34,897 nt of DNA, taken from IMG/VR virus record IMGVR_UViG_2579778778_000007. The stretch is one strand, 5' to 3'. A model generated the notes under the pieces. That model made no database searches. It was not told where the DNA came from and saw only the letters and a program-made list of their open reading frames with translations. This document shows positions 2,387-25,425 of the stretch, one piece after another. The position numbers and the translations under genes are program-made. The DNA is from a virus. Taxonomy: Duplodnaviria; Heunggongvirae; Uroviricota; Caudoviricetes. Every line of letters begins with the position of its first letter. The first letter of the stretch is position 1.

Positions 2387-2452
2387 TTAATTTGCTCCAG
2401 ATACAAGGAATCGCCGCAGCATGGCTACGGTTGGTATTTGTTTGGTTTTTGA

Positions 2453-2471
2453 ACTACGAAAATTTCGTAGT
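2453..2471. promoter_or_regulatory. Perfect 9-bp-arm palindrome (ACTACGAAA a TTTCGTAGT) in the tailspike leader, flanked by an 8-bp long-range inverted repeat (2414-2421 / 2501-2508)
   Basis: Read directly from sequence; lies between ant terminator and tailspike start. Confidence 0.3.
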
Positions 2472-2522
2472 GCTATCCATCAAGGCCATCGCCGCTTAGT
2501 TGCTGCGGTGAATTTTGGGCAT

Positions 2523-2545
2523 AAAAAAACCCAGCCGAAGCTGGG
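2523..2545 (-). terminator. Rho-independent terminator downstream of ant (minus strand: CCCAGC-UUCG-GCUGGG followed by U7)
   Basis: GC stem with tetraloop and A-run on plus strand (U-run on minus) 20 nt downstream of the ant stop codon. Confidence 0.6.
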
Positions 2546-2564
2546 TCGTTGCGTTGGTTATCTG

Positions 2565-3488: not shown

Positions 3489-3570
3489 GTCGTTAATTCC
3501 TATGCGTGGTTTTACGATACCGAAGCCCTGACTGTTCCCGCAGTTGGGGCTTCACTGTTTTGATTTCTTT
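3489..3570 (+). ncRNA. Candidate sar-like antisense small RNA covering the ant ribosome-binding site
   Basis: Plus-strand promoter TTGATA (3454-3459) - 17 nt - TATACT (3477-3482) inside the ant 5' end, reading antisense across the ant SD; plus-strand hairpin 3522-3553 followed by U-rich tail to 3570. Confidence 0.35.
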
Positions 3571-3586
3571 GCCGCATCCAAGCGAA

Positions 3587-3727
3587 TCACACCGTTATCC
3601 CCTCTCTCCTCAGGCTGTCCAGCACCCGTTTAATTACTTCTGCGCTGAATGAGCGACACTCTTCCTTTGCTTTTTCTTCAAGGATTTTTTCTAGCTTCTC
3701 TGGCATACGCAGTGTTTTTACCTTCAT
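3587..3727 (-). CDS. arc: Arc-like ribbon-helix-helix repressor (46 aa, below ORF-track size cutoff)
   Basis: Hand-translated MKVKTLRMPEKLEKILEEKAKEECRSFSAEVIKRVLDSLRREGITV; SD GGAGG 5 nt upstream of ATG; resembles P22 Arc as remembered; sits between mnt-like gene and ant. Confidence 0.6.
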   Translation of the reverse strand: MKVKTLRMPEKLEKILEEKAKEECRSFSAEVIKRVLDSLRREGITV

Positions 3728-3740
3728 TGCATCCTCCGTT

Positions 3741-3804
3741 GTATGTGGTACGCATACATAGTATTTAGGTACGCATTGATAGTCAATAGATACCTACATA
3801 TCCT
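3741..3804. promoter_or_regulatory. Divergent overlapping promoters (Pant-like on minus: TTGACT-17-TACTAT; Pmnt-like on plus: TTGATA-17-TATCCT) with dyad-symmetric operator candidates
   Basis: Direct repeat GGTACGCAT at 3747-3755 and 3768-3776; nested dyad AGGTA..ATTGA tag TCAAT..TACCT at 3767-3795 centred on the overlapping -35 elements. Confidence 0.45.
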
Positions 3805-3832
3805 GTGGTAAAAAATTATTCAGGATGCGCCG

Positions 3833-4084
3833 ATGTCTGATCGTAAGTACAAAAACCCTCAAGTGAATCTGAGGCTTCCTGTAGAGATAAAGGAACGTCT
3901 TATTGAACTGGCTGAGGCTAATTCTCGTTCATTAAATGCTGAGATGGTCGCGGCACTTGAAGCGTGGACCGAAAAAAATAAACACATTCAAGCACTAGAC
4001 CTTGCAACTATAGCATCACGATTGATAGATCTTGAACACGATGTTGAGACGCTAAAGACCATGTATGGTAAGGATGCAAAATGA
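3833..4084 (+). CDS. mnt: Mnt-like ribbon-helix-helix repressor
   Basis: ORF track 83 aa (same length as P22 Mnt as remembered); N-terminal RHH-like segment NLRLPVEIKERLIELAEANSRSLNAEM; divergent from arc-ant. Confidence 0.55.
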   Translation: MSDRKYKNPQVNLRLPVEIKERLIELAEANSRSLNAEMVAALEAWTEKNKHIQALDLATIASRLIDLEHDVETLKTMYGKDAK

Positions 4085-4290
4085 ATAAAAAACAGTTTAT
4101 TAAGTCAACAACGTCAAGCAAGGAAGAGCTAGAGAAAGAGCTAAACTCCCTGAAATATGCTCTGTGTCTGGTTTACTCAAGACTGCCAATGGAAGATAAA
4201 AACGCCATTTACAATGAAATGATTAGCAGCCTTGATTTTAACGATAGAGACCTAGCATCCCACCTCAACAGCTTCCGCGTCCCTGAGTAA
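4081..4290 (+). CDS. Hypothetical protein, translationally coupled to mnt-like gene (ATGA overlap)
   Basis: ORF track 69 aa; start overlaps mnt stop; no recognised homology. Confidence 0.35.
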   Translation: MNKKQFIKSTTSSKEELEKELNSLKYALCLVYSRLPMEDKNAIYNEMISSLDFNDRDLASHLNSFRVPE

Positions 4291-4450
4291 TTCTGTTGCG
4301 GATTTGCTTCTTACGGTGGTTTAAGCTGGAGAGCTTGGCTTCTGCTTCTGATATTTGCGCATCAAGATCTTTAAGCTCAAGATCTGAAAGTCGCTGGTCA
4401 AGCAGGGTTTGGTTCAATTCAATGTTGTTCAGACGTTCTTCTATGGTCAT
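4265..4450 (-). CDS. Hypothetical small coiled-coil protein
   Basis: ORF track 61 aa; strong SD AAGGAG 5 nt upstream of ATG; begins immediately after the terminator at 4464-4489; overlaps 3' end of the plus-strand ORF. Confidence 0.35.
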   Translation of the reverse strand: MTIEERLNNIELNQTLLDQRLSDLELKDLDAQISEAEAKLSSLNHRKKQIRNRITQGRGSC

Positions 4451-4463
4451 GATTTCTCCTTAT

Positions 4464-4489
4464 AAAAAACCCACCTGAAGGTGGGTTTT
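4464..4489. terminator. Bidirectional rho-independent terminator (AAAAAA-CCCACC-TGAA-GGTGGG-TTTT)
   Basis: Perfect 6-bp GC stem flanked by A-run and T-run; between convergent transcription units. Confidence 0.65.
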
Positions 4490-4493
4490 ATAA

Positions 4494-5462
4494 TTAGATT
4501 TCTGGTTTCATTCTTCCGAAAACCTTTTCTATTCCTTTTTCGTATTCTTCTCTTGTCTCACTCATCGCTGCGACACCAAGAAGCTTACCGATATGCTGAC
4601 GCAAAGCCTTGACACCAATTTCAGAAAGGAACAGATGCAACTTATCAGATTGTTTTCCGTTCTCGTCTCGGCTGGCTCGAATCTGTTCAAGGATTTTACC
4701 TTTACTCTTTGCTAGCGGGGTGTATATCTGCATGTTGGTTAGCTGCCCAAAACGAATAGGCCGTCCTTTCTCTGGCCTATTCAGGCCGTACAGTCGATAC
4801 CACTCCTCGTATAGCTCATCTGGAAATTCCTTTTCATATTGACGAGCCTCTTCACGAACAAACGCTTTGAACTCGTCAATGACAGCCTGAACTTCTGGAC
4901 GATAACCAGCAAGCGCATACGCAACCCCCTTAATTCCCGCCTTAGCGGAGGCATTAATAAGTCTCTGTGCTGCGGCGGCTGCCTTTAACCGTGATTGTGG
5001 TAGATCGTCATTATCTTTGGCTTCTATTAGTGCCCTACCAATATCAACAATTGCTGTAATGTCATAACCTAACGCTTGATGAACGGTTTTAGACTTCGAA
5101 GTAAGTTGAAATTTATAGGGATTTTCCATTTTTCGCTGCAATTCTAGATCTCGGTATTTGCTCATATACTGAGCGCCAAGCAGTTGATCTAAATCCCTGG
5201 CATGTTCACCAATCCCTAGCAACTGAGATAATCCAGTTTTCGTAACAACGACAGTTTTCGACTCGTCATCCAGTACATAACATTCAGCATCAATGCCAAA
5301 ATCATCTAAAAAGTTACCACGATGAGTTGCCCTGAGAATCTTACTTTTCCATCTTGCAGCAGCTGCTTTCTTTGCTATTTCAGAACGCTGCTCTTTAGTC
5401 AGCGACTTTGCGCGAGCGATCCCGCCCTTAGCTTTCCCTTCGCCACTTTTCTTTTCAGTCAT
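4494..5462 (-). CDS. Hypothetical protein (322 aa from ATG at 5462) with lysine/arginine-rich N-terminal segment; function unknown
   Basis: ORF track 4494-5525 begins at a TTG; in-frame ATG at 5460-5462 with SD-like AAAGGTG; occupies the locus where P22 has sieA. Confidence 0.7.
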   Translation of the reverse strand: MTEKKSGEGKAKGGIARAKSLTKEQRSEIAKKAAAARWKSKILRATHRGNFLDDFGIDAECYVLDDESKTVVVTKTGLSQLLGIGEHARDLDQLLGAQYMSKYRDLELQRKMENPYKFQLTSKSKTVHQALGYDITAIVDIGRALIEAKDNDDLPQSRLKAAAAAQRLINASAKAGIKGVAYALAGYRPEVQAVIDEFKAFVREEARQYEKEFPDELYEEWYRLYGLNRPEKGRPIRFGQLTNMQIYTPLAKSKGKILEQIRASRDENGKQSDKLHLFLSEIGVKALRQHIGKLLGVAAMSETREEYEKGIEKVFGRMKPEI

Positions 5463-5555
5463 AATGCAAGCACCTTTGTTGTGATGTATGCTTGCATTAT
5501 ATGCACTGTACACACATACAAGCAAGCATAAAACAAAAACAAAATGCTTGCATTA
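5461..5555. promoter_or_regulatory. Divergent control region with two paired inverted repeats of motif TGCTTGCA/TGCAAGCA (operator candidates)
   Basis: 12-bp perfect inverted repeat ATAATGCAAGCA (5461-5472) / TGCTTGCATTAT (5489-5500); second imperfect pair 5521-5528 / 5545-5552; each pair has a 16-bp spacer. Confidence 0.45.
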
Positions 5556-5618
5556 CAACCGCGCTACTCCAACTACACATTATCATCTGGTATCCTGCGC
5601 AAAACTAAGGAGGTTGGT

Positions 5619-5948
5619 GTGCTTGAATGGTTTCTGTTGGCTGCATTAGTCGTTTCTGGTTTGGTGTATGAGTATCGAATGCACTCTCTAACAAAAAAAA
5701 TAGGAATTCTAGAAAACGAATATTGTGCTCTCAAATCCTCACTGGAACGTGAGCAAGGAGACTTAAAAATCTCTCTGTCTAGCATTGAGCGTTCTATAGA
5801 GAGCCTAGAGGATAAGGTTGATCGTATAAAGAATGAGGATATTCATGATATTAAGGACGACATATCCTTCTTAAAATCTTGGTTGAAAAATGTTGGGAAA
5901 ATTGCCACATCAACACGAGATAAGCTCAATCCATCCATGGATGACTAA
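5619..5948 (+). CDS. Hypothetical membrane-anchored coiled-coil protein (about 109 aa from GTG; alternative ATG at 5544)
   Basis: ORF track 5544-5948; in-frame GTG at 5619 preceded by SD AAGGAGG with 5-nt spacer; N-terminal hydrophobic helix LEWFLLAALVVSGLVY then heptad-rich region. Confidence 0.5.
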   Translation: MLEWFLLAALVVSGLVYEYRMHSLTKKIGILENEYCALKSSLEREQGDLKISLSSIERSIESLEDKVDRIKNEDIHDIKDDISFLKSWLKNVGKIATSTRDKLNPSMDD

Positions 5949-8117
5949 TTACTCCTGTGCCATTCCGCTTAGCGATGCCACAATTCCAGCTCTTGCTAAA
6001 CGCTGGAACTCTTCGTTTCCTAGTGCCTCGCGTATTGCTTTTACGGCGGCCTTATTTGCCATAAATCTGCGTTCCGCCGCCGCTAATGCACCATCACTTG
6101 CCCCAACCTTAACTGCCTTTGTTGCCTCTTGAACAGCCTTTTCAATAGCGTAACGACCGCTTCTAGTTGCGGATAATTTCGCTATCGCTCCTTTTGCCAT
6201 TGCATCAATTGCCCCACCTGCAGCGCCACCCGCTATTGCTCCAATAACGCCTCCTCCAGAGAACCCTGCGATAGTGCCAGTAGTTCTAAAAGCGCCAGAC
6301 AATGCGCTCTCTAAAACTGGATGAAGGCCATTCTCAAGAGTGCTAATGGCTGGCATAGATCGCCCTGTCTGTTCAACATATCGAAGTGGCTTTGTTGCTG
6401 CTCGTGCAAGTTCTCCGTATGAACTTGTAATCCTGCCAAGTTCTGGAGAATATCGACTAATTGCCTTCACGTTTTGTGGGGTAAGAATAGTCGCGATATG
6501 CTTAATTCCAGCCTCTTCAGACTTACCTCCGCGTACCCCTTGCGACATTGCATCTTGTAATATTGATGCAATTGCTGGCGCGCGTTCCGACTCAGGTAGG
6601 GCGCTTATTATTTTATGGAACTGACCTGTTCCACTTTTTGCTGAACCCTGTAACGCCTTAGATCCATTAGTTACCAACTGATCAGTTGCAAGGTCTCTAC
6701 CAAACGCTGCTTCAGCCTGTTCTTGTGCTGTAAATCTTGCCTTTGACAGATCATTAGCTTTTTGCCAGTCATCAAGAAAACCGCCATTTTGAGCCATTAT
6801 GCGCATATCTTCCGTTGCTGCATCACGAAGCTCAGCCATGCGCCTTGCCGTATTTGCCTCACCAGACCTTATATACTTCTGCTCTGCGTCAGCAAGTTTA
6901 CTTCGCCATGCCTTCATGGCATCAAACGTGATTCCTTTTTTACCAGTTTTAGCATAAGCAGATGCGAATTGTTTCATCTCAGGAGTTAGCGGCATGCCAG
7001 CCAAAATATCACCCTGAATTGTAGCGTTCAGGTTTGACATTCTGGCCTTTGCGTCAGGCATCGTGGAGCGGACGCTATCCCATGCAGCCTTTTCTGAATT
7101 TTTCATTTTATCAATACTTGCCAAAACCCTTTGTTTTATGGCTGCACTTTTTTCTGATGCAGTTCCTGCTTCAGCCCCAAACTCATCCAATGCTGAGTTA
7201 AATTTCGACTCTATTTCACTGAATGCTTTGGTGTGTGCATCCTGTGTAATTCCGGGCTTTGACGCCAGAATCCCCTCCGCCTGAGCAAGACCACGACTAC
7301 CTGATCTCATGCCAGGAGTTAATGCGTTGATATCTATTCCAGCAGTATCTGCTGCTTTTGCTATTTCGTCTGACACATTAGCTGACTGTCTGGCAATAAT
7401 CTCTCTTCCTGTACCAGACTTTGCCATTTTCGAAACATCAGCAGCGGAATTTATTGCCCCGCCACCAAGAACTTGAGGTGATTTAGAGGTTAAGATCCTT
7501 CCAGCCCCAGAAAGTATCCCCTGAGCACCAATATTGATACCACCGTTAATGGCAGCATTTTGTGCAAAGTCGCCCTCCTGATTTGCAGCATCAGCAAGAG
7601 AACCTGCAATCATGTTTCCTGCGGAACCGATATCTTCAGCGAGCTTTGCTGGCGCTCCAGCAGCTTTTGCCGCTGTGCCAATTGGCAGGAGATACCCACC
7701 AATTGTTTCACCGGCTTGCGCGTAAGGGTCTGTCGGTCGATCGACAGGGCGATAAACATCATCCAAAACCTTTGGGCCACCAAGCCCCTGGCTGATTGCA
7801 TTAATCAGACTTGCGCCACCCTGCAATACGTCAAATGGTATGTTTACCAGACCACGACCAGCCTGTTCTGCAATTTGCCCTGCACTTTGACCACCAGTGA
7901 GCCAATCGCCAGCTTGTTGCATCAATGATGGTTCTTCTTTCTGCTGCTGAGGTGGAGGGTATGCTGCATAAAACTGATCTCTTGCTTCAGCCCATTTGTC
8001 ACCAGCCTTAGGGGCAACAACCTCATCAAAATATTGCGCTTGAGCCTGTGCTTTCTGTTCTTCAGTTAACGCCTGATACTGTGGAGAAGCGATAACATCT
8101 TTCCATGCTTTAGCCAT
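5949..8117 (-). CDS. Ejection (injection) protein, P22 gp16-like
   Basis: ORF track 722 aa; Ala/Gly-rich; synteny after gp20-like gene. Confidence 0.65.
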
Positions 8118-9466
8118 TAATCACCCCATAAAGACGAGAAACCAGACTTATTGCTGTCGCTTCCTGATTTTCGCTCACTAACATATGTGTCATAACCTGA
8201 TGAACTATATCCCATTGATTCAGCCTCCCTTGCTGCAACCTTTTGAAATACAGAATATTGCGATCGGATTTCAGATAACTGTTTTCTGACGACCTCTTCA
8301 GGCTGTGTTATATCGAGTTTCGCGATAAGGTTTTCCAGTTTTTGTCCTTCAGCATTGGAGAGGCTACCCATACCTCGCATAGTCTGCACGTTCTGGACAA
8401 ACGCACCCGACTTTAATTCTTCTATCGCATTACGGTTTGCAAGCCCTTCAGCACTTGTGAAGCCATCTATATTTCTTCCTTCGAAGCGACCGATACCTTC
8501 AAGCTCCTTCTTACCAAGCAAAGAATCTATTTTCTCTATCCCTCGCTCACCAGTAATCAACGCATTGTTGTAATTATTGTTGCCATCAAGCCATCTCTTA
8601 GCCTGAGACATTCTGGCTGACGTTGCAGCTTTACCGGTTAGCGGATCAATTCCCGTCGCTGCTATCTGTGAGTTAAGAGACAAAACATCCATATCCTGAA
8701 GTTGTCCTGCTCTTTCAAGGGCCGCCTGTGACTGCTTAAACACATACTTGTCGTGATTCAGTCTTGCCATTTGAGCCTTATAGGAAAGATCCTGCCCCCT
8801 AATAGCCCTCGCATTCGTCATGTCATTATTGCGAATGGTTTCGTTAATTCTTTGCTGCTCCTGCTGGCGACCAGCCATCTTATCCTGAACAGCAAACGCC
8901 TTTTCTGGTCCAAGCGCACCGAGAGACATAGTAGTCAGCATGTGTGATAGCTGCTCTGGATTCTGGATACCTGTCTGAATCATCCAGTCAGCATTCGCCC
9001 CCACGCGATTTAACCTGTCCTTGTTGTCAGTAATGAATTTACTGTAGGCTTCCGGTCCCTGAGAAAGAGCGACGTTAGCCCTCATGGCTAAATCGCCCAT
9101 ATCGTTGCGTTGCTGCTCATTAAGACCGGAAAACGCCTGTTGTGCCTGTGCAACAAACGCTGGATTTTCCTGGGCAAACTTAAATAGTCCCGATGGATCA
9201 CCAGAAGCCCATGCATCAGCGTGAACCTTATTGAACGCACTAATAGCTTTCTGTTGCTGTTCCTGATTGTAAATATCAGCAACTCCAGCCAGACCACGTA
9301 ACGCGGTCAGACCAACGTTATTTGCACCTGAGCGAGCCAGTTCATTGTTTTCGCGGATCAGACCAAGCGTTGCGTTAATGTCGCTTGCCTTTGGCGCATT
9401 CTCATTTTGCGTACCGATGCCAGCCAGAAAACCACCAGAATTAATACCCTGTTGCCACGTAGCCAT
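8117..9466 (-). CDS. Ejection protein, P22 gp20-like
   Basis: ORF track 449 aa; synteny between gp7-like and gp16-like genes. Confidence 0.7.
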
Positions 9467-9475
9467 GATTACCCC

Positions 9476-10165
9476 TTAAAACAACGAGCCAAGCAGACCA
9501 AGACCGCCGCCGATCGCAGCCCCCCACGGAGTTGATGAACCAATTAATTTCGCAAGTCCAGCCCCAGCAATAGCACCAGACGCACCTCCGCCAATAGCAG
9601 ATTGCATTGCTGATGGTCTGTTGGCATTTGCCGCTGCAAGAGCCGCACTTTGCTGCGAAATCTGACTCATGTTGTTGGCATATGTCTGCCCGGCGTTTGC
9701 CTGACCTTGCAGTGCGCCAAGACCAATATTTGCCAGATTCTGGTAGTTGTTCATCTGACCAGATAGCCATTGCTGACCAAGCGTTGGTGCGATTATTGCT
9801 AACTGATTACCGGTTGCAGTGGAACCCAATCCACCTGTTGCTTCCGCTGCCGCCAGACTCTGATAGCGCGCCTGACCAGCAAGGTCTTTGTACTGCTGAG
9901 AGTTGTAATACTGGTTAAGCGCCTGACCTTGCCCCTCCAGAGACGATAAGTTCTCGAGGCTGCCGACATACTTATCAGCCAGAGGAGTAAACGGCTTCAG
10001 GTTGTTCATGATGGTGTTGAACTGCTGATTTTGCAGGTCTGCTGCATACTTCTGAGCTTCTGCTGCATACTTTGCGCTTTTATCAGAGCCACCTTTCCCG
10101 CCTTTTTCAGGGCAATAAGGTTCCTCGCCGCGCAGTTTTCTGCCCAGCTTAAATGCATATAACAT
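9476..10165 (-). CDS. Ejection protein, P22 gp7-like
   Basis: ORF track 229 aa; near-identical to remembered P22 gp7 (MLYAF.LGRKLRGEEP...GGGLGLLGSLF). Confidence 0.85.
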   Translation of the reverse strand: MLYAFKLGRKLRGEEPYCPEKGGKGGSDKSAKYAAEAQKYAADLQNQQFNTIMNNLKPFTPLADKYVGSLENLSSLEGQGQALNQYYNSQQYKDLAGQARYQSLAAAEATGGLGSTATGNQLAIIAPTLGQQWLSGQMNNYQNLANIGLGALQGQANAGQTYANNMSQISQQSAALAAANANRPSAMQSAIGGGASGAIAGAGLAKLIGSSTPWGAAIGGGLGLLGSLF

Positions 10166-10167
10166 GG

Positions 10168-10626
10168 CTATCTCCCGTGATTCAGGAAGTCGATTAGTTC
10201 TTCGCGTGTGGCGCTGTAAAACGTCACGTCATCAACGCCTTTGAAGTATTTCTTGATGGTTCCTACACGCTTAAGGCCAATCATTGCGCAGTACATCTGA
10301 CCGTGGCGGAATTTGCGTGCAGCGAACGATGTGACGCACTGAACAGTGGTGTTAGTCAGAATGTATCGCCAGAACGCCAGCCCGATTTCCTTGCTGAAGC
10401 CACGAACCTCTGGCAGGTACATGGCGTGGCAATCGAATGTCAGCGGCTGAATCTCCTGATAGTAAACAATGCCGCCAAACTGACCGTGCACGTTAACCTC
10501 AAAGTAACGGCATTCAGGCTTGTAGTCGTATCCATCACCGTTGTTGCTCCCGGCAATAATGTCAGGGTGATTTCCGACTGCTTCGATCAGGTCGATGTTT
10601 CGCGTTGGTTTGAACTGAATCATCAC
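10168..10626 (-). CDS. Head completion / tail accessory protein, P22 gp14-like
   Basis: ORF track 152 aa; synteny between tail needle and gp7. Confidence 0.6.
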
Positions 10627-11576
10627 TGCTCCGCGATTATCTTGATGGTTGTGGCAGTAAACGCCGCCCCATTTGACTGGATGGTTAACGTACTGCCATT
10701 TGTGGCAAGAAAGCCGTCTTTATCCACGCTGAAGAACGTAGCTAACAGGATGTTATCGGTTGTTGTCGCCGAGTTGCGACTGCTTACCAGTGTGTCAGGA
10801 ACAGATCCGGAAAAGGTTAGCTGCATTGACCTGTTTGCGGTTCCGCTGGGCCACGTCCCGACAATCGACAGCTTGAAGAACAGGGTTTTGTTCTCGTTGA
10901 AAACAACCATCTTGTTGTTATCAGTATCGAAGAATGGTGCCAACGTCCCGGATGACGGCGTGAGCGTTTTCAGCAGGCTAACAAGGTTGGTCGGCGCTGT
11001 TGGAATGGTTACCGATACTCCTGAGTAAACAACCTCTGATTTCTTGCGCGTGGTGGCATACTCAAGCGCAGATATTCTTGTTGAGTGATCACCAACTGTG
11101 CTTTGTAGCGTCGAAATACTTCCCTCTGCCGCTGTGAGCCTGGTATCAAGTGCGTTGATATCGGTTGTATTCTGAGTTATTCGCGCATCATGGTTTGCTA
11201 ACTCAGATTCATTGGCAGCAATTCGCGTCTCGTGATCAGCCAGCTCTGTTTCGGCAGCCGTAATCCTTGTTTCATGATCTGCAAGAGTGCTTTCCGCTGC
11301 TGAGATTCTATGTTCATGATTGATGAGAGTTGCTTCAGCAGTTTCAATTCTGGATTCATGGTCTGCAAGGGTGACATCCTGCTCATCATTCTTCACCTGT
11401 GCATCATAAGCCCCCTTCCCTGCTTCGTTGGCCTTGTTAGCCACATTACCAACATCAGTACCCTGTGCAATAACGTAAAGCAGATACGACTGAGAGAAGA
11501 TATTGCGTGGAAGGACTGATGTATCGAGCCGCGTAGCCTGGATGATTACTGGCTCATTGAGATTCGAATCAGCCAT
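10623..11576 (-). CDS. Tail needle protein (P22 gp26-like N-terminus, extended repeat coiled coil, C-terminal globular domain)
   Basis: ORF track 317 aa; N-terminus [25 protein letters not shown]...[13 protein letters not shown] matches remembered gp26; repeated ADHExRI units. Confidence 0.85.
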
Positions 11577-12994
11577 TACTCAATCCTTATCTGGCAGCCA
11601 GACAGAGTTACAGGTGACTTCGTGATAACGCGCAATTTGAAGCCAACATTTTTCCTGATGCGCCCGACTCGCTTCCACAAAACGCGCTTGTCGTAAACGA
11701 ACGGTTCATTCTGCTCAATCATCTGCTCACGCCCGTAATTGATGCCGTCAGTGGTTGCAGAGAGGAACAGGCGGTCGGCGTACTGAGCTACGCCAGTGGA
11801 TGATTCCACCTCCAGATCGAAGCATCTGGCGTTATCCGCTTTGAAGAGTGGAGTAAACAGCAGGTGTTCCTGTTGCTTGTCGTACTGGCTGCTGATGTCG
11901 AATTGCAGTTTCCCGGTAACAGATTCCAGCTTATCGCCGCACGTTATCTGATTGCCTTCGTAAATGAAGTCGATAGCGCGGTACACATCGTCATACAGGC
12001 CTGTTTTCAGTACACACCATTGTGGGCCATTGGCGCTTGAAGATGCGTCGTACACGAGAACATGGCGCGGAAGGTGGATAATCAGCAGCTCATGCGCATC
12101 AAATCGCAGAGACTCCATCACGCCATCAGCCAGTTCATCGGCAGTGTAGGAGCGGAGGATTTTCTCAATGCTCGCGCAGGCGATTGGTGATACCTGACCG
12201 GAGCCGATGATGTATACAGACGGCGCACCTGTTGCCGGATTGCTGATGAACGCATACGAATCAGCAAACGGCGTTTTGCAGTAGGTTCCGGCGATTCCTT
12301 TTTGCACCATCAGTGATGGCTGTGCGACATACAAAGCAGCACCAACGGTGGTTGCCCCAGTCAGGGAAAAATATTCAATCGTCGATGAACCAAAGCAGAC
12401 GATGAAGTCTCGCCATGTACCTATGCCGATGATGCCGTCCGGCTGCGATTCTGCGCGATATTGTGCGCTGTAGCGGTCAGGATGCGATTCGTCTTCAAGG
12501 TCAGTGATAAACCATGAATCAGTTCCGTCTTTTGACCACGCATAACGCCCACGTAAGCGCGTAATGTCGCGGACCGAGCCTAACTCATACTGCGTGAATC
12601 CGCTGTCTGTAGGCCAGTTTGAGACTGTTTTGACCGCGCCATCATAACGATACTCGACCAGTTGACCATTAACGCCTACCGCCTGTGATGTCCGACCATG
12701 CGCCATTGATACGCGACCACTTCCGGCGACGTCACCGACCTCACTTTCGCCCTTATACAATTTGCCACCACACACGCGATAAACAGCATTCTGCGCCATG
12801 TTGTACTCGACGCCTCGCGATACGCCGTTCACATCAGAACGTTTGGTAATGCCAGGGAATGAGCGAAGATATCCGCTGCTGTTCAGGATTTCTTTGGGTG
12901 TAGCCAGCATATTCACTGGCAGATAGTCGATATAGTCGGCATTTCGGAAGTCTTTGCCGACACCTTTCATGAGCGGAAGTTGCTGAATCGGCAT
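11576..12994 (-). CDS. Head completion protein, P22 gp10-like
   Basis: ORF track 472 aa (same length as P22 gp10 as remembered); synteny. Confidence 0.8.
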
Positions 12995-13494
12995 TATTCG
13001 CTCCCGTTATCGCAAGGTTCCTTTCGCTGGAAGTAATTCCACCCGTTCCACTTCGCCAACTGATTACCGCTACCAACAGGCATACGGTTTGGATAACCGG
13101 ACTTACATTTAGCGGCTTTTGCTCTGTCCATTGCAGACAGTTTGACGAGTCGCTCTTTCCCGTATCTGGCAGTGGTTATAAGTTTTGTAGACGCTTCCAG
13201 TGCATAATCCGGAGCAATGCGGCAGGCAAGGTTGAAAATGACGGCATTGATAGCGTTATTTGATAAACCGTGCTCATCGCCCGGATCTGGAGCGACATCT
13301 GCATCAGCGAAAATGTAGCCAACGTTGATGCCAGGTGACGCATCACCGCCAAGCCATTCAGCCATCATCATTTCAAGGTCGTTGACGCCGTCTTCCATAG
13401 ACTGCGGTTCGACATCGGTTAACGTGGCATTTGATGCCACACCGAGCTTACGTAATGCCGCAAGGACTAAATCACCCTTCGTTGTCAGGTTCAT
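12994..13494 (-). CDS. Head completion protein, P22 gp4-like
   Basis: ORF track 12994-13575; homology to remembered gp4 begins at internal ATG 13492-13494 ([33 protein letters not shown]). Confidence 0.8.
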
Positions 13495-13714
13495 CTGCTG
13501 CCGCCTTAGGTTTTCGACCAGGCTTTTTACGCTGTTTTTCTTCTGGCTCTGGCTCTGGCTCTGGCCCTGCAACATCCTTCAGAAGGTCATCGGGATGTGC
13601 AAACCAACCAGCATCCAGATATTCCTGAATCTCTTCGGCTTTCACAATTTCAAAATCGTAGCCAACGCCTTTCCACTTCTTCATGTTGCCATGGCGAAAG
13701 ATCATGTGTGTCAT
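13472..13714 (-). CDS. Hypothetical small protein with PEPEPEPE segment and basic C-terminal tail
   Basis: ORF track 13472-13762; ATG at 13712-13714 with SD GGAG 6 nt upstream, immediately after the post-coat terminator. Confidence 0.45.
13545..13568. repeat. Hexanucleotide tandem repeat (GGCTCT)x3 plus GGCCCT
   Basis: Read directly; encodes PEPEPEP in the small ORF. Confidence 0.7.
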
Positions 13715-13728
13715 GCTTGTCTCCAGAT

Positions 13729-13750
13729 AAAAAAGGGAGCCGAAGCTCCC
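13729..13750 (-). terminator. Rho-independent terminator immediately after coat gene (minus strand GGGAGC-UUCG-GCUCCC-U6)
   Basis: Perfect 6-bp stem, tetraloop, run of 6 A on plus strand; 8 nt downstream of coat stop. Confidence 0.6.
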
Positions 13751-13758
13751 TCTGGTTA

Positions 13759-15054
13759 TCACGCAGTCTGGTTAGGAAGACCAACACCAATTGCCTCTGG
13801 TCGTACAGCACATGCTGAATACCACACAGCAATACGGCACTTACCAGACAGAGTGTTGATATCACCCTGCGTTGCGAAGATGCCGTTAACACCAATGCCT
13901 GGAATGCTGAAGGAAGACGTTTTCATGCCAGCAAACAGTTCATGGGTTACCGGGATCGGCTGAGACAGCAGACGGATTGAGTCATCAGCCCAGAACACGT
14001 TAGCGGTGGTTGTTGCCACGTTCAGAACGTTTACCGGAGTGGTATCAGCAAGAGAGGTGTTTACGTTAGCGTAAGCCTTCTCTTCTTTTGTCAGTGACGC
14101 GTCATCCAGTGCAATCGGTTTCGGCGTGATTTCGATGTGAGTACCATCGATCACACGGGTGATTGAGAAAGTCGCGTCATCAGTTAGCACGTTCTTCGCC
14201 ATCTGAGACAGGAATTTCACACCAGTGAAGCTGATTTTGTCGCCGCGCTTAAATCCGGTGGTGGAGGATACGGTCACCGTTGCAACACGGTTGTCGACGT
14301 TCTCTTTGTTACCATCGGTATCAAGGGTGTATGCCTGCGGCTTAAACTTCTGCGCACCAGAAACAGTTACACCAGTCGCGGTTGACTTGGTAACTGCCGG
14401 AAGTTTCGGTGAGCGAAGAATTTCATCAAAGCCAGCAATCTGACGCTGAATAGTACCGTTGCGATACGCTTCTTCAGGAACGCGCCCAAAGATGTCACCA
14501 TCTACCAGGTTGCGGCCTGCTTTGCGGTAATCGTCAGGGTTCAGGAAGTAACTGATGCCCATGTCGCGGTTTAGCTCACGGGAGAACATCAGGCGCTCTG
14601 CATCAGACACAAAATCCCAGCCAGACAGGCCAGTAGATGGACCAATTGCGCGGGTATCGTGAACAACAAGCGAGCCCATTTCAGTTGCCTGTTTGGCAAT
14701 CGCTGACTCAATGTTATTCGCCAGTTTTTTGGCGGATGCCTGGATGCGGCGACGGTAAGAACGCTCATCACGCAGGTCATCTGCACGAAGTTCGAAGAAA
14801 TCGTTATCCGGATCGCCCATGTTGCATTTCACGGAGAGTTCCAGAATCCCGGTAGCGTTGCCAGTTAAATCCCAGCCAGTCTGAGTTGGCGCTTCCTGCT
14901 CAACAGGCATCCACACGGTGTTGCTTGAACGCTGCATGGATTCTGCCGGAGGGGTGTATTTTGTCACTTTGGACGCCATTGGCGTCAGGTTCTGGACGGT
15001 TTCGATGATTTCATCCAGAGCATACGTGACCAGTTGACCTTCATTTAATGCCAT
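13759..15054 (-). CDS. Major coat protein, P22 gp5-like
   Basis: ORF track 431 aa; closely matches remembered P22 coat (MALNEGQ...[13 protein letters not shown]). Confidence 0.9.
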
Positions 15055-15965
15055 TATCGAATTCCTTTATTCAGTTGCGCCTTGAGCTTGCGGTATGTCT
15101 CTACATCCCCTTTGTTTGCTGCCGCTTCCATCTGCTTTTCAATCGCAGATATATTTGCAGCAACAGCGTGTCCATGAATGGGTTCATCAGGTAGCGGGGC
15201 TTCTGAAACAGGTTTGGCTCGAGGCTTGAGAGTTAAACGTTCTGACAGTCGAGTGAGTTCAATCAGCGCGGATTGCCCGTCCATCGCCAGCAACTGGCGT
15301 GTTTTCTCAGGATTAGCACCAAGGTGATACATGAGAGCGGCGGATTTCTCCGGGAAGAGGCGCATGATGTCGGCACCGACTGCTGGCGGCACCAGTTGCA
15401 TGAATGCATCCTCTTTCTCCTGATAGTCAGGGATATTGAGCTTTTCCGCTGCGTCGTAGTGCTTACGGGCTGCCTCGACGTATTGCGCTGATTGCTGGGT
15501 GAACTCCTGAGTTTTGCGACCCTGCTCGGCGACAGCCTGGCTTCGTGCGTCCATAGCCTTGATCTGCCATTCACTGTTTGCCTGCTGGAAGGCAGCCAGT
15601 GCGCGGCTCTGGTCATAGTCGTACTTAGCCAGTGCGTCTTCGGAAAGATAATCGTTAGGGTCTGGTTGTTTCGGTAACTCAGGGTTCACCCGCAGGTGCT
15701 CCGGCAATTCTCCACGCTTAACCGCTTCCATCTGCTGCTCAAGCTCACGCTGGCGTTTGCGTTCGATGCGGCGACGGGCAAATTCAGCATTAGTTGCCGG
15801 GTCTTGTTTTGGTTTCTCATCGTCTTTCAGGACAATCTCGAAGCCTTCTTCCTGACCTGCGTTGTCGTTGGCATTATCGACAACTAAGCCATCAGCAGAT
15901 GCCGCTGCATGATTGCCAGGCAGGGTTAATTCTTCAGAAGCCTGAATGTCGGTGGTTTGGTCCAT
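15054..15965 (-). CDS. Scaffolding protein, P22 gp8-like
   Basis: ORF track 303 aa (same length as P22 gp8 as remembered); C-terminal ...[12 protein letters not shown]. Confidence 0.85.
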
Positions 15966-15978
15966 GATTAACTCTCTC

Positions 15979-18144
15979 TTATTGAGGTGTCTCGGCTACT
16001 CCGCCGGAGGGGATTTGAACTTGACGCATAAGATTCGCGAAATCCATGCGTTGTGAATGAGTCTGGTCTGCATCTTTAAGAAGCAGCTCAGCGTTAGCAC
16101 GAGCATCTTTGCTGCGCTGTTGCTGGAATTGACCTACGAGCTTGAGGTACTCACGCAGTTCTGCCTGCTTGTCGAGGTCCATATTGTTGAAGATTTCTGC
16201 AATCTTCGCGGCGTTGAGTTGGTTCTGGGCTTCAACCTTGGCAGCTTCAACCTGAATCTGCGCCTGTTGGTTCTCTGCCTTGAGCAATTCAGCCTGACCT
16301 TGCAGAAGGATGCCCTGCGCCTGAATTTGCTCTGCTGATGGCTGCTGCGGCTGTTGTTGTGCCTGCTGCACCATCTCCATCTCTTCAGGTGTTTCTGGTT
16401 TCTTCAGCCCCATCATCACCAGTTGCTTGTTCGCGTACTCTCGCATCATCTCGACGCCTTTACCGTCAAGCAGCGTGAAGTATTGCAGCATCAGCATCTG
16501 GAACTCTGGAGTACCTTGCGGAACCTTGGTTAGTAACTCCTGAATCTCTGCGCGGTTCTGTTCCTTCATGCTCTGGAAGGATGGCCCAACGTCCGTATAG
16601 CACTCATAGCGACCACGAATGTCGTTGAGTGTGACCACATTGCCGGACTGATAATCGACAACTTGCGCATAGAGTTGAACGTCTTTCTCGCTTCCATCTT
16701 CAAGTGTCAGCGTTACATGACGAGGAACGTCATAAATATCGTTGACCATTGAGGCATAAATCTCGCCATCACGTCGCATTGCAGTAGCCAGGTTATCCTG
16801 AAACACGTATGTCTCAAGGTCTGCCCGCATGTTCAGTTGATTGACGGTATCGAAAGCGACCTGACCATTTGCCGCCTGCGCATCAACGCCAAGACTAGCC
16901 ACCTCTTTCACTGCGTTGGTGGCTGCCTCAAGCATGTAAGCGTTGGCTTGCGGCACTTCAGGGTTTTCCATGTAGGAGATTGGACCAATCGGCAGGTCGT
17001 TACCGTTTTCATCGGTCCTGTTCTGCAGATAGTACGGATAGTCATCATTTCCACCGTACATGTATTCGTAGCCTTCGATTTGCTCAGGGAAGAAGGTAGG
17101 TTTCTTCTTCGGTGAACGAGCAACAATATCGGCGTTGAATGACATGATCATGTTACGAAGGCGTTGACCGTCTTTCGTCAGCCTTACCACTCCTTCGTAG
17201 CACTCCTTGTCACCAGCGAATGACCATTCGCCATACACTGGAACGATTGGAATATGCTCTCCGGCTATCTTCTCGCGGTCTTTCAGTATCTGCGTGCAGG
17301 TGATGATCGACTTATACACACGCCGACGCTTCACCTTGCGCTCTGCTACCTTAATGAATCCACGATTAGCCAGGTCGTCGATGACGTCTTTGATATCCTG
17401 CTGGTAATAGCTGACCGGCTCACCTGTCAGCGGGTCGCGGTAGATGAAGACTTTCTCTTTCTTCTCTTCTACCTCGTAATACTCAGCGACGTAGACGACA
17501 TCATTCGATACCCACGGAAACAGCCATGTGTCGTTCGGATTCTGGAAAGATGGCAAGGTGTCAGGATCAATACCGTAATCCTCTGCGAACTCTTTCCAGC
17601 CATTGCGTGACAAAGCGTTAATCACCGTGCAGTGCTTAGCATCGCTCTTATCCATCTGCTTGCTGTTGGCGTCCCATATGACGTGCGAGCAGGCTTCATG
17701 GATTGGCAGGCGTCGGATTACCTGATTGTTGCTTGTTGGGTCGTTGTCTTCGTACTGGGTGACCAGACGCCATGCACCAACGCCGGACTCTATCTGCTCA
17801 CGAACGCCAACGTTAACGGCAATCTTTGCCGTGTTATGGCGCATATCAGTACGATACATTCCCATCAACACATCGGCAGCATCAGGATTAGCGCCGTCTT
17901 TGGGTCGGAAGAGAACGTCGATAGGATTCCGGCGCATCTCTGCTACCAGTTTCCTGACCACCGGGCGAACAACATCGAATTGTCCGCGATATTGCAGGGT
18001 AGTGTAGTTTGATAGCCAGTCATCCCATTGCGACACTCGGCTAAAATACAGGTCATTTGTCGCCTCGGTTCTGGCTTCATCGCTCGCCATCCAGTCCGCG
18101 TCAAACTTACACAGAATGGAATTGAGTCTGTTTTCGTCGGCCAT
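15979..18144 (-). CDS. Portal protein, P22 gp1-like
   Basis: ORF track 721 aa; extensive match to remembered P22 portal (FDADW.ASDEAR...[11 protein letters not shown]...SGGVAETPQ). Confidence 0.95.
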
Positions 18145-19470
18145 TTAAGTTCTCCGTGCGATGGGCCTGATTGGGGCTGGTATCTTTTTCTCTTTTGGTT
18201 TTTTGATGTCGCGCATCATTTTGGCGAAGCGGCGCATCATGTATGCATAGCGAACGGCTGATAGCACGTCGTCGTTAAGCTTGACGATCTTCCCGTTTTC
18301 ATCACGGTGATAGAGGCGGAACTCCTCAAAGAATGGCTCACAGGTGTTGAATACTTTGAAGCGACCATCGAGCATCATGTCGCGCAATTCAGTGATGCCA
18401 GGCTCCACGGCATTACCGCCATCAGGCCATGTCGCATGCTCCTGCAACATCATAAAACCAGCGTCTGCATACTGCCCTTTGAGCTGCTCACCGCCGCCCT
18501 TCTCATGCTGGTTTCCGTCATGAGGCCATGCTGTTGGCACTTTATGCGCCCATGATTTAACAGCTCCCCATGCCTGAACGGCTGTTTTTTCTTTCGCCTT
18601 CCACACGCGTGAAACGTAGATTGTGTCTGCGTCCTTATCCCACCAAAGCTGAACCTGCGCCTGCGGGTGATCCCATCCGAAATCCATCCCGCCAATTACG
18701 TAGAAGTGATCAGGACACTCGAACGGCTGACACTTAATCGTCTCTTCCGGTATCTGGAAGATTCGACCACTACCCATCGTAGGAATACCGCGAGCACGCG
18801 CCTCTCTCTCATGCTCGGGATATGATGCGATGATTTGCTCTTTCTGCTCGTCGGTATAGTGCTCAGCGTCATAGATGGTCATGTTGACCACTTTCTGCGA
18901 CTTGCTGGGGTTCTTCAGGAACTTGGTAACAACGTCAGACATCCCCATCAGCGGGGTAAACGTCAGAATTGAGAATTGCCCGTATTTGTTGGTACGGGTA
19001 AGACCTTCGCCATAAATGCTGTATGGTGGCTCTTCGTCAAACCACACGCCGTGGATTGTGTCACCCTGCCAGCGAGCGCGGCCTTGCGAGTATGGTTTGA
19101 AGTAGCAGATTGAAATGCCATCTTCAACGCCATCAGCCGTGTGATGCTTAACCAGAAGATGATCAACAAGGTTCGGAAAGAAAGGAGACTTCTTCCAGCT
19201 AATGATGTCCTCTTTCGGTATTGAACCGTAGCCCGGCTCATCATTCTCTTCAATACGACCGCACAGGATGCGTTGAGTCGTTTTAGTTACCGTCTCGTTT
19301 GTCTCGCCGCCAATCCAGAAGACAACAGGCTCATAGAAACGCTTACCTTTCCACTCACCGCCATATTTACCATCAGCAGGATAGCCTTTTGTGCCCGGAT
19401 AACGCCCGGTAAGGTGAAACGCGACTTCAGCAGCACCAGTAAATGACTTACCAAGCTGGTTACCAGCCAT
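18145..19470 (-). CDS. Terminase large subunit, apparently 5'-truncated (only available Met lies just before the Walker A motif GNQLGKS; frame stays open upstream to 19578 without a start codon)
   Basis: ORF track 441 aa; Walker A at residues 4-9; upstream in-frame peptide ...[23 protein letters not shown] has no ATG/GTG/TTG and abuts the truncated ninI 3' end. Confidence 0.75.
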   Translation of the reverse strand: MAGNQLGKSFTGAAEVAFHLTGRYPGTKGYPADGKYGGEWKGKRFYEPVVFWIGGETNETVTKTTQRILCGRIEENDEPGYGSIPKEDIISWKKSPFFPNLVDHLLVKHHTADGVEDGISICYFKPYSQGRARWQGDTIHGVWFDEEPPYSIYGEGLTRTNKYGQFSILTFTPLMGMSDVVTKFLKNPSKSQKVVNMTIYDAEHYTDEQKEQIIASYPEHEREARARGIPTMGSGRIFQIPEETIKCQPFECPDHFYVIGGMDFGWDHPQAQVQLWWDKDADTIYVSRVWKAKEKTAVQAWGAVKSWAHKVPTAWPHDGNQHEKGGGEQLKGQYADAGFMMLQEHATWPDGGNAVEPGITELRDMMLDGRFKVFNTCEPFFEEFRLYHRDENGKIVKLNDDVLSAVRYAYMMRRFAKMMRDIKKPKEKKIPAPIRPIARRT

Positions 19471-19537
19471 AAAACAGCGCTCTGGATAGTCATGCCCGGC
19501 GTCGATGAACTCACGCTGTTTGCTGTATGGCGTAAAT

Positions 19538-20149
19538 TCATATATCGATATACATCTGGTTGGAAAACTTGAGTGGTTTCACTGCTGGCGTATGACCAAA
19601 GATGAACGTGTCCGCGCCTTTGATTTCTTTCACGACCCCGTCTTGTGAGTTGCTGATTCGTTCGCGGCTCCAGATTACCTGCTGATGATCAACTGGCTTT
19701 CCAAACTCGTATTTATCACAAGGATAATCGGCGTGGCAGATGACATATTTTTTACCTTTGCTCACCAGTTCGATGATTAACGGAAGTTCACCTGCTTTAT
19801 GGGCAAGAGCTTTAGCCAGAATTTCTTTGTCGTAATCGAGATTAAAGAACCAGCCACCGCCATTAAGCAGCCAGTGATTGACGTTTCCACGCTCTGATAA
19901 GCCATCAATCATCATTTGCTCATGGTTTCCACGTACAGCTCTGAACCAGGGGAATGTGATTAATTCCAGGCATTCGACGTTCTCTGTACCGCGATCAACC
20001 AAATCGCCAACCGAGATAAGCAGGTCTTTTTTGGTGTCGAATCCTATCGTCTCCAGTTTTTTCATCAGGTTCGTGTAGCATCCGTGCAGATCGCCAACTA
20101 CCCAAATATTTCGGTATTTGCTGCCATCAATTTTTTCGTAATAGCGCAT
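19538..20149 (-). CDS. ninI: NinI serine/threonine protein phosphatase, C-terminally truncated at a deletion junction
   Basis: ORF track 19538-20224; homology to remembered lambda phosphatase from [25 protein letters not shown]; sequence diverges after ...NQMYID and stops. Confidence 0.85.
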
Positions 20150-20333
20150 CTCTTTCACTCCATCCGCGATGAACCATGAGAACGTCGTTGACGATGGCGT
20201 GCATTTTCCCGTCTTTATCATCAACGTATTTTCTTACCGTGCCGCGACTACATTTCAGTCTGCGTGCCACTTCTGTCTGGTTTCCGTATGCTTCAACGAG
20301 CATGTCTGGAATGGTTTTTACTGAGAACGTCAT
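20127..20333 (-). CDS. ninH: NinH
   Basis: ORF track 68 aa; matches remembered lambda NinH; ATGA overlap with ninG stop. Confidence 0.75.
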
Positions 20334-20674
20334 GCGGCCTCATCCCACTGAGCAGACGTGAGCGTTCCGCACGAGATACATGGTAAGTCGCGGTCTCTTT
20401 CTCTGATGAAGGCGTTTACGGCTTGTTGGGCTTGTTTAATCCAGTAACTGCGGGGCTTTAAGGCGAGTTTTCGAATCTTCAGTTTATCTTTCTGTTTCTG
20501 CTCCTCTCGTCGTCGTTTCTTCTCTGCTGCTTTTTCCGCTTTTTTTCGCTGTTTACTTTGTAGTTTGAGTGCTAACTGAGTTCCGTGTTCCGGGCAGCAC
20601 CACCACTGATTTGAGAATGCCGGGTGAAACCATTCCTTGCATATTTTGCATTTCCTTCGCGCTGGTTTAGCCAT
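20330..20674 (-). CDS. ninG: NinG (Rap) homologue, shortened (114 aa versus about 200 aa in lambda as remembered)
   Basis: ORF track 114 aa; N-terminal half matches remembered NinG (MAKPARR.C...EWFHPAF.NQWWC...[15 protein letters not shown]) then ends. Confidence 0.65.
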
Positions 20675-21185: not shown

Positions 21186-21362
21186 TCATTTCCTCGCACG
21201 ATGTCTTAGCCACCGGATATCCCACAGGTGAGCCGTGTAGTTGAAAGTTTTTACGTCAGATTCTTTGGGGATTGGCTTGCGTTTATTTCTGGAGCGTTTC
21301 GTTGGAAGGTATTTGCAGTTTTCGCAGATGATGTCGGTGAAACTTCGTCGCTGTCGTCTCAT
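21186..21362 (-). CDS. ninE: NinE
   Basis: ORF track 21186-21407; internal ATG at 21360-21362 gives [32 protein letters not shown]... matching remembered lambda NinE; ATGA overlap with ninB stop. Confidence 0.8.
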
Positions 21363-21733
21363 TCGTACCTCCTGTCGGTAAATCTGACACCCTGACCAAT
21401 AGCCCACGCTGTTGTGTACTCAATCAGACTTGCCATACGCTTCACACTCATCTGCGCGCTGCTTTCGCGGATGTTGACGTATTCGCCTTCAAGCCCGGGC
21501 AAAACATCAGCTTCCTGCTTTGTTGCCACTGCATGACCGCTGATCAACAAAACCTTCCATTGTTCTGGTTTTAACCATTTATCGCGCCACTGAACTTGCC
21601 TGGCGATATCTGCGACCATCGCGTGAAATTTTGCGTTCTGGTCAAGATTTCGCTTGTAGTCAGTAATGCGGATGGTGACTGGCTTGTCTTTATCGAGAGG
21701 AGTTGCGAGGATGCCCTGTATCTCGTGAGTCAC
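21359..21733 (-). CDS. ninB: NinB recombination protein
   Basis: ORF track 124 aa; similarity to remembered lambda NinB; synteny. Confidence 0.7.
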
Positions 21734-22916
21734 TTGGTAATGGGCGTTTATTGGTTCTGCTTTCCAGTGCGCGGTTAAGCTGCGTCAGAAGCACAACAAC
21801 GCAATCAAGCTCTTTGGCAAGGTTCTTCAGTCCTTTGGTGATCATGCCGTAAGCAAGGTCGTTGCGATCGGCCTTCTCAGCGGTCATTAGTGTCAGGTAA
21901 TCGACCAGAATCATGCCAACACATCCTTTTTCTCGCTTGATTCGACGGCTTTCGCTGACGATTTGAGCCAGAGATAATCCCGGCGTGTCGTCGATGTAAA
22001 GCAGGTCGATTTCACTCAAACGATTAGCTGTTTCGATCGCCCTGTTGAAGTCACCATCGTAATCACCCTGATAGCCGTCATCAGCGTCATTTGTCGCCGG
22101 AAGGTAAAAAATATTCGGGTTAACACCTGACTTCTGCCCTACCAGTTTTTCCAGTATCTGATCACCTGGCATTTCAAGGCTGAACATCAGAGCGGGCTTT
22201 TTCTCATGCACTGCGCAGTTGATTGCCATCTGGCTGTATAGCGTCGTTTTCCCCATCTTAGGGCGAGCGCCAATGACAAACAGAGAGCCTTTCACCAGAC
22301 CTTTCGGTGACAGCATCCTGTCCAGCGATGGGATCCCTGTGCTCATTCCTCGTTGTTCGCCTGACGGGTCAAATCGCTTCTCAAGGTCGCTAACCCAGTC
22401 TTCCATGACCTCACCAAATGAGCGAAGGCCGCGACGCGATCCGGTTTTTGCATGGTCTGTCAGTTGCGTGAAAATCGCCTGAATAGCTTCGTACTTCTGC
22501 GTCGCAGTCATTCCGTTGCGGGAATAGAGCAATTCCGTCGCTTCAGTCATGCGGTTGATGGCGTAGCGTTCCATTGCGGTTTCACGAACCTGCATTGCAT
22601 AGGCAACGATGTTTGCTGCGCTTGGCGTGTTCTTTGCGATCTCAGCGATATAAGCAAAACCGCCAACAGACACCGTTAACGATTTACGCTCCAGTTCATC
22701 GAAAAGCGTCAGGCCATCTACTGGCTTTTGCTCCCGGTGCATTCTGGTTATTTCTTCGAAAAGGATTTTGTGTGGTCGGCTGTAAAATGAATCGGGCTTC
22801 AGCATCGCCAGAACTTTCTGGACGCGCTCACTGCTGTCATCATCCAGAAGCAATCCACCAATCACCGCCTGCTCTGCCTCGATGCTATGGGGCGGCGCAT
22901 AAAAATTATCGGTCAT
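21690..22916 (-). CDS. Replicative DNA helicase (DnaB family)
   Basis: ORF track 21690-22931 (GTG); ATG at 22914-22916 with SD; N-terminal PHSIEAEQAVIGG and Walker A GARPKMGKT. Confidence 0.85.
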   Translation of the reverse strand: MTDNFYAPPHSIEAEQAVIGGLLLDDDSSERVQKVLAMLKPDSFYSRPHKILFEEITRMHREQKPVDGLTLFDELERKSLTVSVGGFAYIAEIAKNTPSAANIVAYAMQVRETAMERYAINRMTEATELLYSRNGMTATQKYEAIQAIFTQLTDHAKTGSRRGLRSFGEVMEDWVSDLEKRFDPSGEQRGMSTGIPSLDRMLSPKGLVKGSLFVIGARPKMGKTTLYSQMAINCAVHEKKPALMFSLEMPGDQILEKLVGQKSGVNPNIFYLPATNDADDGYQGDYDGDFNRAIETANRLSEIDLLYIDDTPGLSLAQIVSESRRIKREKGCVGMILVDYLTLMTAEKADRNDLAYGMITKGLKNLAKELDCVVVLLTQLNRALESRTNKRPLPSDSRDTGHPRNSSR

Positions 22917-24410: not shown

Positions 24411-24620
<210 letters not shown>

Positions 24621-24637
24621 TTAGTACATGCAACCAT

Positions 24638-24701
24638 TATCACCGCTAGAGGTAAAATAGTCAACACGCGCGGTGTTAGATATTTATCCCTTGCGGTGAT
24701 A
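24638..24701. promoter_or_regulatory. Lambda-type right operator OR1 (24638-24654), OR2 (24662-24678), OR3 (24685-24701) with pR/pRM
   Basis: 17-bp operators match remembered lambda OR; OR1 and OR2 each differ at one position from my remembered canonical sequence. Confidence 0.8.
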
Positions 24702-24708
24702 GATTTAA

Positions 24709-25425
<717 letters not shown>

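Follow-up and report, generated by a model that had tools for sequence, protein, structure and literature searches.

The 34,897-nucleotide (nt) stretch analysed here (IMG/VR virus record IMGVR_UViG_2579778778_000007; referred to throughout as the window) is a P22-like prophage, in which a lambdoid early region is combined with a P22-type virion module and a lambda-type integration module. Between the early and virion regions a 3'-truncated copy of the nin-region gene ninI is joined directly to a 5'-truncated copy of terL, the gene for the large terminase subunit (TerL). This junction, which we call J3, is real and marks a recent stage, specific to one lineage, in the decay of a defective prophage; it is an ordinary event of a known kind. 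We consider it very probable that it arose through a spontaneous deletion of about 5 kb, the third of three deletions at this locus, which has left a crippled P22-like Escherichia coli prophage.

J3 is a direct break in homology within two open reading frames (ORFs) rather than a statistical pattern. In a megablast search against 50,697 phage records, homology of the terL/portal side to Dewey, HZ41 and IME10 (97-98% identity) ends at window position 19544, and nin homology (Huey, 97.6%) begins at 19543. A three-way alignment of the window with the 5' end of Dewey terL and the 3' end of Huey ninI resolves a scarless join (J3, 19543..19544), the ninI and terL sides overlapping by 2 nt ("TA" on the coding strand) and about 5.0 kb being missing. 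An earlier note, made from the letters of the window, had proposed a deletion fusing the two truncated genes, with ninI homology ending after ...NQMYID, and had named alignment of the ninI 3' and terL 5' ends to intact relatives as the way to map the breakpoint. That alignment places the exact breakpoint at 19543/19544 with GAT (19546-19544) as the last native ninI codon, so that the proposal holds up and its breakpoint was right to the base.

The segment that the deletion removed can be read from relatives in which both flanks are present. In the prophage of E. coli VR50 the two breakpoints lie 5,001 bp apart and enclose Q, an HNH gene, the holin, lysozyme and Rz genes, a KilA-N gene, a small ORF, a DUF2560 gene, terS (the gene for the small terminase subunit, TerS) and the first 100 nt of terL, and the fECg99.1 prophage has the same layout. 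All 10 of 10 loci that encode an identical portal protein likewise carry Q, holin, endolysin, Rz, DUF2560, a 162-amino-acid (aa) TerS (PF16677) and a 499-aa TerL, which supports the expectation that Q, lysis genes and small terminase normally lie between the nin genes and the large terminase. Genes in the window were assigned from an ORF listing with PHROGs and Pfam scans, which were extended to ORFs of at least 50 aa outside the genes already assigned, and no window ORF of at least 50 aa matched a family of Q, holin, endolysin, Rz/spanin or TerS. Searches of the whole window by blastn and tblastx with the Q-to-terS segments of three relatives returned nothing but a 25-nt match at the ninG/ninH boundary, and the absence of these genes from the window, also claimed in the earlier note, is thus borne out by both approaches. 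The genes by which a functional prophage would be recognized are all missing or damaged, namely Q, the lysis cassette, TerS, a full-length TerL and the helicase. As a separate observation, homing-endonuclease genes of the HNH or NUMOD4 type are scattered through the relatives, for instance between the scaffold and coat genes in Dewey and the locus L017 and near Q in VR50; the window has none of them.

A sibling allele records the locus before this deletion. The Logan contig ERR13185745_47 (L008) is identical to window 23674-19543 at 4132 of 4132 positions, the two other deletion junctions (J1 and J2, described below) included, and continues beyond 19543 into the rest of ninI (223 aa), Q (PF06530), a holin gene (PF05106) and an endolysin gene. 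L008 is the nin-side allele as it stood before the J3 deletion. J1 and J2 are older than J3, because L008 carries both of them without J3, and the zero substitutions between window and sibling over 4.1 kb point to a very recent J3 deletion. The junction is also rare, being found in 0 of 5,426 complete E. coli genomes and 0 of the 50,697 phage records; an exact junction 30-mer had 0 matches in a genome-contig collection that holds one genome per species and is hence uninformative on this point. The exact fusion-truncated NinI protein (WP_025653474.1) occurs on only 5 contigs, among them AYJZ01000009.1 (L003), a 4.87-Mb contig and 150-kb contigs, and across 6.5 kb around J3 the sequences of L003 and the window are 100% identical. 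Breaks inside ORFs on both sides, a segment present in relatives, an undeleted sibling allele and chromosomal integration together mark the locus as a deletion-derived defective prophage.

What remains of ninI (19538..20149, minus strand; ATG at 20149, TGA at 19540-19538) encodes a 203-aa serine/threonine phosphatase that ends in ...FSNQMYIDI*, the native C-terminal 21 codons having been replaced by an isoleucine codon and the TGA, both terL-derived. Intact ninI in Huey comprises 672 nt and encodes 223 aa, so the window copy is without its last 65 nt. The Metallophos domain is complete in the truncated protein, which may still be active. A NinI-TerL translational fusion was considered and ruled out, since terL is read in the +1 frame with respect to ninI, whose own frame closes at 19540-19538.

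The terL remnant (18145..19544, minus strand) retains 1400 of 1500 nt and has lost its ribosome-binding site, start codon and codons 1-33; in the isolated phage Dewey the intact gene comprises 1500 nt and encodes 499 aa, so that the first 100 nt are gone. Ahead of the ATG at 19470 its frame stays open over 36 codons, none of them ATG, GTG or TTG, as had been read from the sequence before: the only remaining Met is indeed preceded by 36 in-frame codons without a start and stands just before Walker A. That ATG, codon 59 of the intact gene and the sole canonical start left, is preceded by 74 nt of terL coding sequence and would yield a product of 441 aa in which the Walker A motif (GNQLGKS) directly follows the Met. 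The 441-aa ORF covers positions 3-214 of 215 of PF03237 and 1-154 of 155 of PF17289, and both the ATPase and the RNaseH-like nuclease domains are therefore present. Read by eye, the sequence ahead of the Met59 ATG (GACTATCCAGAGCGCTGTTTTATG) offers no obvious Shine-Dalgarno motif, and expression of the 441-aa product is doubtful. The public annotation of this locus (L003, AYJZ01000009.1, and L007) reports a 468-aa terminase starting from an ATA codon that corresponds to window position 19551, inside ninI; this call is an annotation artefact that hides the truncation.

The lost N-terminus has a mapped function. Residues 1-33 of P22 TerL, which match the codons deleted here, are present as a separate chain in PDB entries 6VI1 and 6XMI, and a review places the site at which P22 TerL binds TerS within the first 23 residues (PMC9611059). 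The window copy thus has neither the N-terminal TerS-binding segment nor the native start codon of a P22-type TerL. A second element may be affected as well. The Q143A and Q163A mutants of T4 gp17 are reported to be inactive (bioRxiv 10.1101/2021.03.08.434477), and the Gln of a PYSKQ motif in the window's terL frame precedes the Walker A Gln by 20 residues, just as Q143 precedes Q163 in gp17. From this spacing we infer that the PYSKQ Gln is the equivalent of gp17 Q143; it lies upstream of the only remaining start and is missing from the Met59 product. The pac site of P22 is located in gene 3 (terS). With terS, and thereby pac, gone and the TerL N-terminus gone too, packaging would therefore be excluded on several counts, and packaging by the terminase of a helper would probably be impossible for want of pac.

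The two earlier deletions emerged from comparison with Huey, VR50 and fECg99.1. J1 (21712..21721) fuses a 3'-truncated dnaB-type helicase gene to a 5'-truncated ninB, with about 835 bp lost relative to Huey and an exact overlap of 2 nt ("CA") inside a 7/10 imperfect match. Among the matches listed, 4 complete genomes cover J1 as two pieces with 579 extra bp between them, which is the undeleted form. The helicase gene (21690..22916, minus strand) has lost its last 232 nt and encodes 408 aa, compared with 478 aa in Huey, and its DnaB_C profile coverage falls to 1-199 of 255, compared with 1-244 in Huey. The part lost from DnaB-family helicases truncated in this way includes motif H4 and the arginine finger, and the window's helicase is probably dead, judging from what is generally known of the family. 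The ninB remnant (21359..21733, minus strand) has lost its first 48 nt and opens at a GTG within dnaB-derived sequence, its Pfam coverage being 17-131 rather than 1-131, with the first 16 positions lost. J2, at 20341/20342, is an in-frame deletion of 261 bp (87 codons) with a "TG" overlap that leaves ninG (20330..20674, minus strand) with a 114-aa product matching positions 1-108 of the 193-position NinG profile; other E. coli prophages have intact copies that include the extra 261 bp and match both of its flanks at 100% identity. The exact 114-aa NinG occurs on only about 6 contigs, these carriers having been identified by exact-protein look-up, as a nucleotide search joins intact copies as two pieces. 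The truncated helicase gene is also present in L003, L007 and L008. The claim in the earlier note that the replication genes are intact does not stand: the helicase has lost its C-terminus, ninB its start and ninG 87 codons.

We propose the following sequence of events. Deletions in helicase/ninB and in ninG came first, and a third, spontaneous deletion of about 5 kb, spanning Q, the lysis genes and terS, would then have joined ninI to terL codon 34. The 2-nt shared ends suggest illegitimate, microhomology-type end joining or replication slippage. With the S24 domain of cI intact and a PR-like promoter present, SOS induction would still be expected to derepress PL and PR, and excision may follow, int, xis and the att core being intact. 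Replication with the prophage's own helicase, Q-dependent late transcription, lysis and DNA packaging would all be predicted to fail. The remnant would persist as an immunity-conferring element that is not lethal to its host, and selection may have contributed: a replication-dead prophage that still lyses its host would be a pure cost, so that loss of Q and the lysis genes would be favoured, and the standard model of prophage domestication would predict that loss as the next step.

Several points weigh against this account or parts of it. An overlap of 2 nt is close to chance expectation, and the joining mechanism is deduced from it. Non-inducibility and the loss of lysis and of packaging are predictions from gene content. 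TerL translated from Met59 might have some residual activity, as might the truncated helicase or the shortened NinG, and another prophage of the same genome, outside the window, could supply Q, lysis functions or terminase in trans. Finally, L008 shows the nin-side state only: the contig (1-6027) ends within the endolysin gene, and its terminase and structural half is not covered.

A different interpretation of the same deletions is that they reflect stepwise domestication rather than neutral decay: replication would have been lost first, and loss of the Q-lysis-terS block would then have placed the intact 18-kb virion operon on N-antiterminated PR, to be maintained there by selection. In the new arrangement the PR operon runs straight on into the late genes. 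A search for minus-strand terminators gave no convincing one between the nin genes and the terL remnant, and N-modified PR transcription could enter the virion genes. The same observations qualify the earlier claim that late transcription can no longer be activated: the deletion did take Q together with the promoter/terminator region, but with the late genes joined to the PR operon and no convincing terminator between them, N-dependent read-through is conceivable. If domestication were the correct reading, SOS induction would give DNA-free P22-like procapsids, tails and tailspikes, or only immunity and exclusion would be kept, in either case with no lysis. The intactness of the virion genes is equally explained by recency, given zero divergence from the undeleted sibling, and we regard the domestication reading as very improbable.

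Misassembly would be a more trivial source of the junction, two prophage segments having been collapsed or mis-joined while the real chromosome retained a full Q-lysis-terS segment. Several lambdoid prophages, their nin and lysis modules nearly identical, often share one E. coli genome, the flanks of J3 occur at 1-4 places per genome, and repeats of this kind break short-read assemblies, L008 itself stopping in the endolysin gene. Against this, the joined sequences share only 2 nt, which leaves no repeat to collapse; the exact fusion protein recurs on 5 contigs, those of 4.87 Mb and 150 kb among them, and L003 matches the window perfectly across the 6.5 kb around the junction. The two further clean deletions at the locus are present in the independently built Logan assembly as well, and an assembly artefact is accordingly very unlikely. 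We give just as little weight to the idea that a mobile element (through insertion sequence [IS]-mediated adjacent deletion), site-specific recombination or deliberate engineering removed the segment. Relatives do have IS elements in this region, with an IS3-family gene adjoining terS in L016 and another near the VR50 prophage, but J3 shows no IS remnant, inverted repeat, FRT/lox-type scar, att-like repeat or foreign sequence, the window has no transposase ORF, both end points fall within ORFs at non-homologous positions, and J1 and J2 bear the same scarless 2-nt signature. That the window is a natural functional variant, with Q, lysis genes and terS elsewhere or with a terminase family that starts at Walker A (a possibility the earlier note had raised against itself), can practically be dismissed: the Pfam Terminase_6N model does begin at TerL residue 57, and the Met59 product covers 3-214 of its 215 positions and the whole nuclease domain, but the window has no Q, holin, endolysin, Rz or TerS homologue, TerL is 499 aa long in Dewey and in the 10 of 10 identical-portal loci, the 74 nt of terL coding sequence retained ahead of Met59 offer no start codon, TerS binding has been mapped to the residues that were lost, and ninI is cut within its ORF.

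The remainder of the window is that of an integrated P22-like prophage. On the minus strand, read from right to left, lie cro, cII, an O-like initiator gene, the DnaB-type helicase gene, ninB, ninE, ninX, ninF, ninG, ninH and ninI, followed directly by terL and then by the P22-type virion module and the immI region; the plus strand carries cI, two genes without known function, N, cIII, erf, ssb, abc2, ea-type genes, xis and the integrase gene. The lambdoid early and immunity set (cI, cro, cII, N, O-like initiator, DnaB-type helicase, nin genes, erf/abc and int/xis) is present in all its members, of which the helicase, ninB and ninG are damaged; the O-like initiator has kept its full length. 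The immunity region (24411..25425) comprises cro (24411-24611, minus strand), the PR-like promoter (24664-24636, minus strand) and cI (24712-25425, plus strand), which encodes helix-turn-helix and S24 peptidase domains. Between cI and N, in the position of rexAB or sieB, two co-oriented plus-strand genes (25710-26117 and 26105-26755) belong to PHROG families without known function and have no Pfam match; we regard this pair as candidate superinfection-exclusion or defence morons. A single 228-aa ORF in the early-left accessory region (30653-31339, plus strand) combines a dATP/dGTP pyrophosphohydrolase domain (PF04447) with DUF551 (PF04448).

The apparently intact virion genes (20..18144, minus strand) encode portal, scaffold, coat, gp4, gp10, a needle with knob, gp14, ejection proteins of the gp7/gp20/gp16 types and tailspike. 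Their PHROGs matches span the full profile lengths, the tailspike has a P22-type N-terminal domain, and Pfam families PF16510, PF09306, PF11651, PF11650, PF11134, PF16532 and PF25688 match the virion genes of L003, which are identical to those of the window. No lesion was detected in the roughly 18 kb downstream of terL, the whole virion module included, and the portal protein is a very common allele with identical copies elsewhere. The same interval holds the immI region (ant, mnt-like; minus strand, within 20..18144). Between the ejection-protein genes and immI, at 4494-5948, a minus-strand gene for a 343-aa P63C-domain protein stands beside a divergent 134-aa ORF without known function on the plus strand; P22 has sieA at this position. 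A PADLOC scan of the accessory genes at 25710-26755, 4494-5948, 27858-28543 and 30653-31339 gave no matches.

At the right end of the window, xis (32213-32431, plus strand) and a lambda-type integrase gene (32409-33479, plus strand; 356 aa) are followed by the exact 15-bp lambda att core, GCTTTTTTATACTAA (33553-33567), and by E. coli ybhC (33614-34897, plus strand), the last gene in the window. This gene is found in 5,417 of 5,426 complete E. coli genomes and belongs to the gal-side neighbourhood of the lambda attachment site. With this att core between int and ybhC, a gene near-universal in E. coli, the element is a prophage integrated into an E. coli chromosome at the lambda attachment site beside ybhC and not a free phage genome. 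The prophage is accordingly a mosaic in which a P22-type virion module travels with lambda-type int/xis at the lambda attachment site. A tRNA scan found no tRNA genes in the window.

For annotation, the locus is best described as a defective prophage in which terL, ninI, ninG, ninB and the helicase gene are truncated, and a prophage predictor would be mistaken in calling it intact on the strength of its virion genes. It is a small but clear record of decay in steps: microhomology deletions have struck it three times without leaving scars, and a sibling lineage preserves the stage before the last. The record agrees with the established view, in which prophages lose their host-killing functions early, and opens no new question.

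The intact relatives (Escherichia phages Dewey, HZ41 and IME10, Salmonella phage P22, and the VR50 and fECg99.1 prophages) have the same gene order as the window and share with it the P22-type virion genes and the lambdoid cI/cro/cII/N/O/DnaB/nin early region, at DNA identities to the window of 97-98% in terL/portal and 97-100% in the nin genes. The window differs from them in being without the approximately 5 kb from ninI codon 203 to terL codon 33, in its truncated helicase and ninB genes, and in its shortened ninG. The classical nin5 deletion of lambda removes 2.8 kb of the nin region, including terminators upstream of Q, while Q, lysis and packaging are kept and the phage is viable. J3 resembles nin5 as a simple deletion in the P-to-Q interval that rewires PR transcription to downstream genes, but it starts in ninI and removes everything from Q through to terL, which leaves the phage dead. 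The cryptic lambdoid prophages of E. coli K-12 (DLP12, Rac, Qin and e14) are old elements that have lost most virion genes, and DLP12 keeps Q and a lysis cassette. A general model of prophage decay and domestication is said to have been set out by Bobay, Touchon and Rocha in PNAS in 2014. Like the K-12 elements, the prophage described here is lambdoid and chromosomal and has deletions that would make it non-inducible or non-productive, with host-killing functions lost while immunity and accessory genes stay; unlike them, its decay appears very recent, its virion module has no detected lesion, and it is Q, the lysis genes and terS that are gone.

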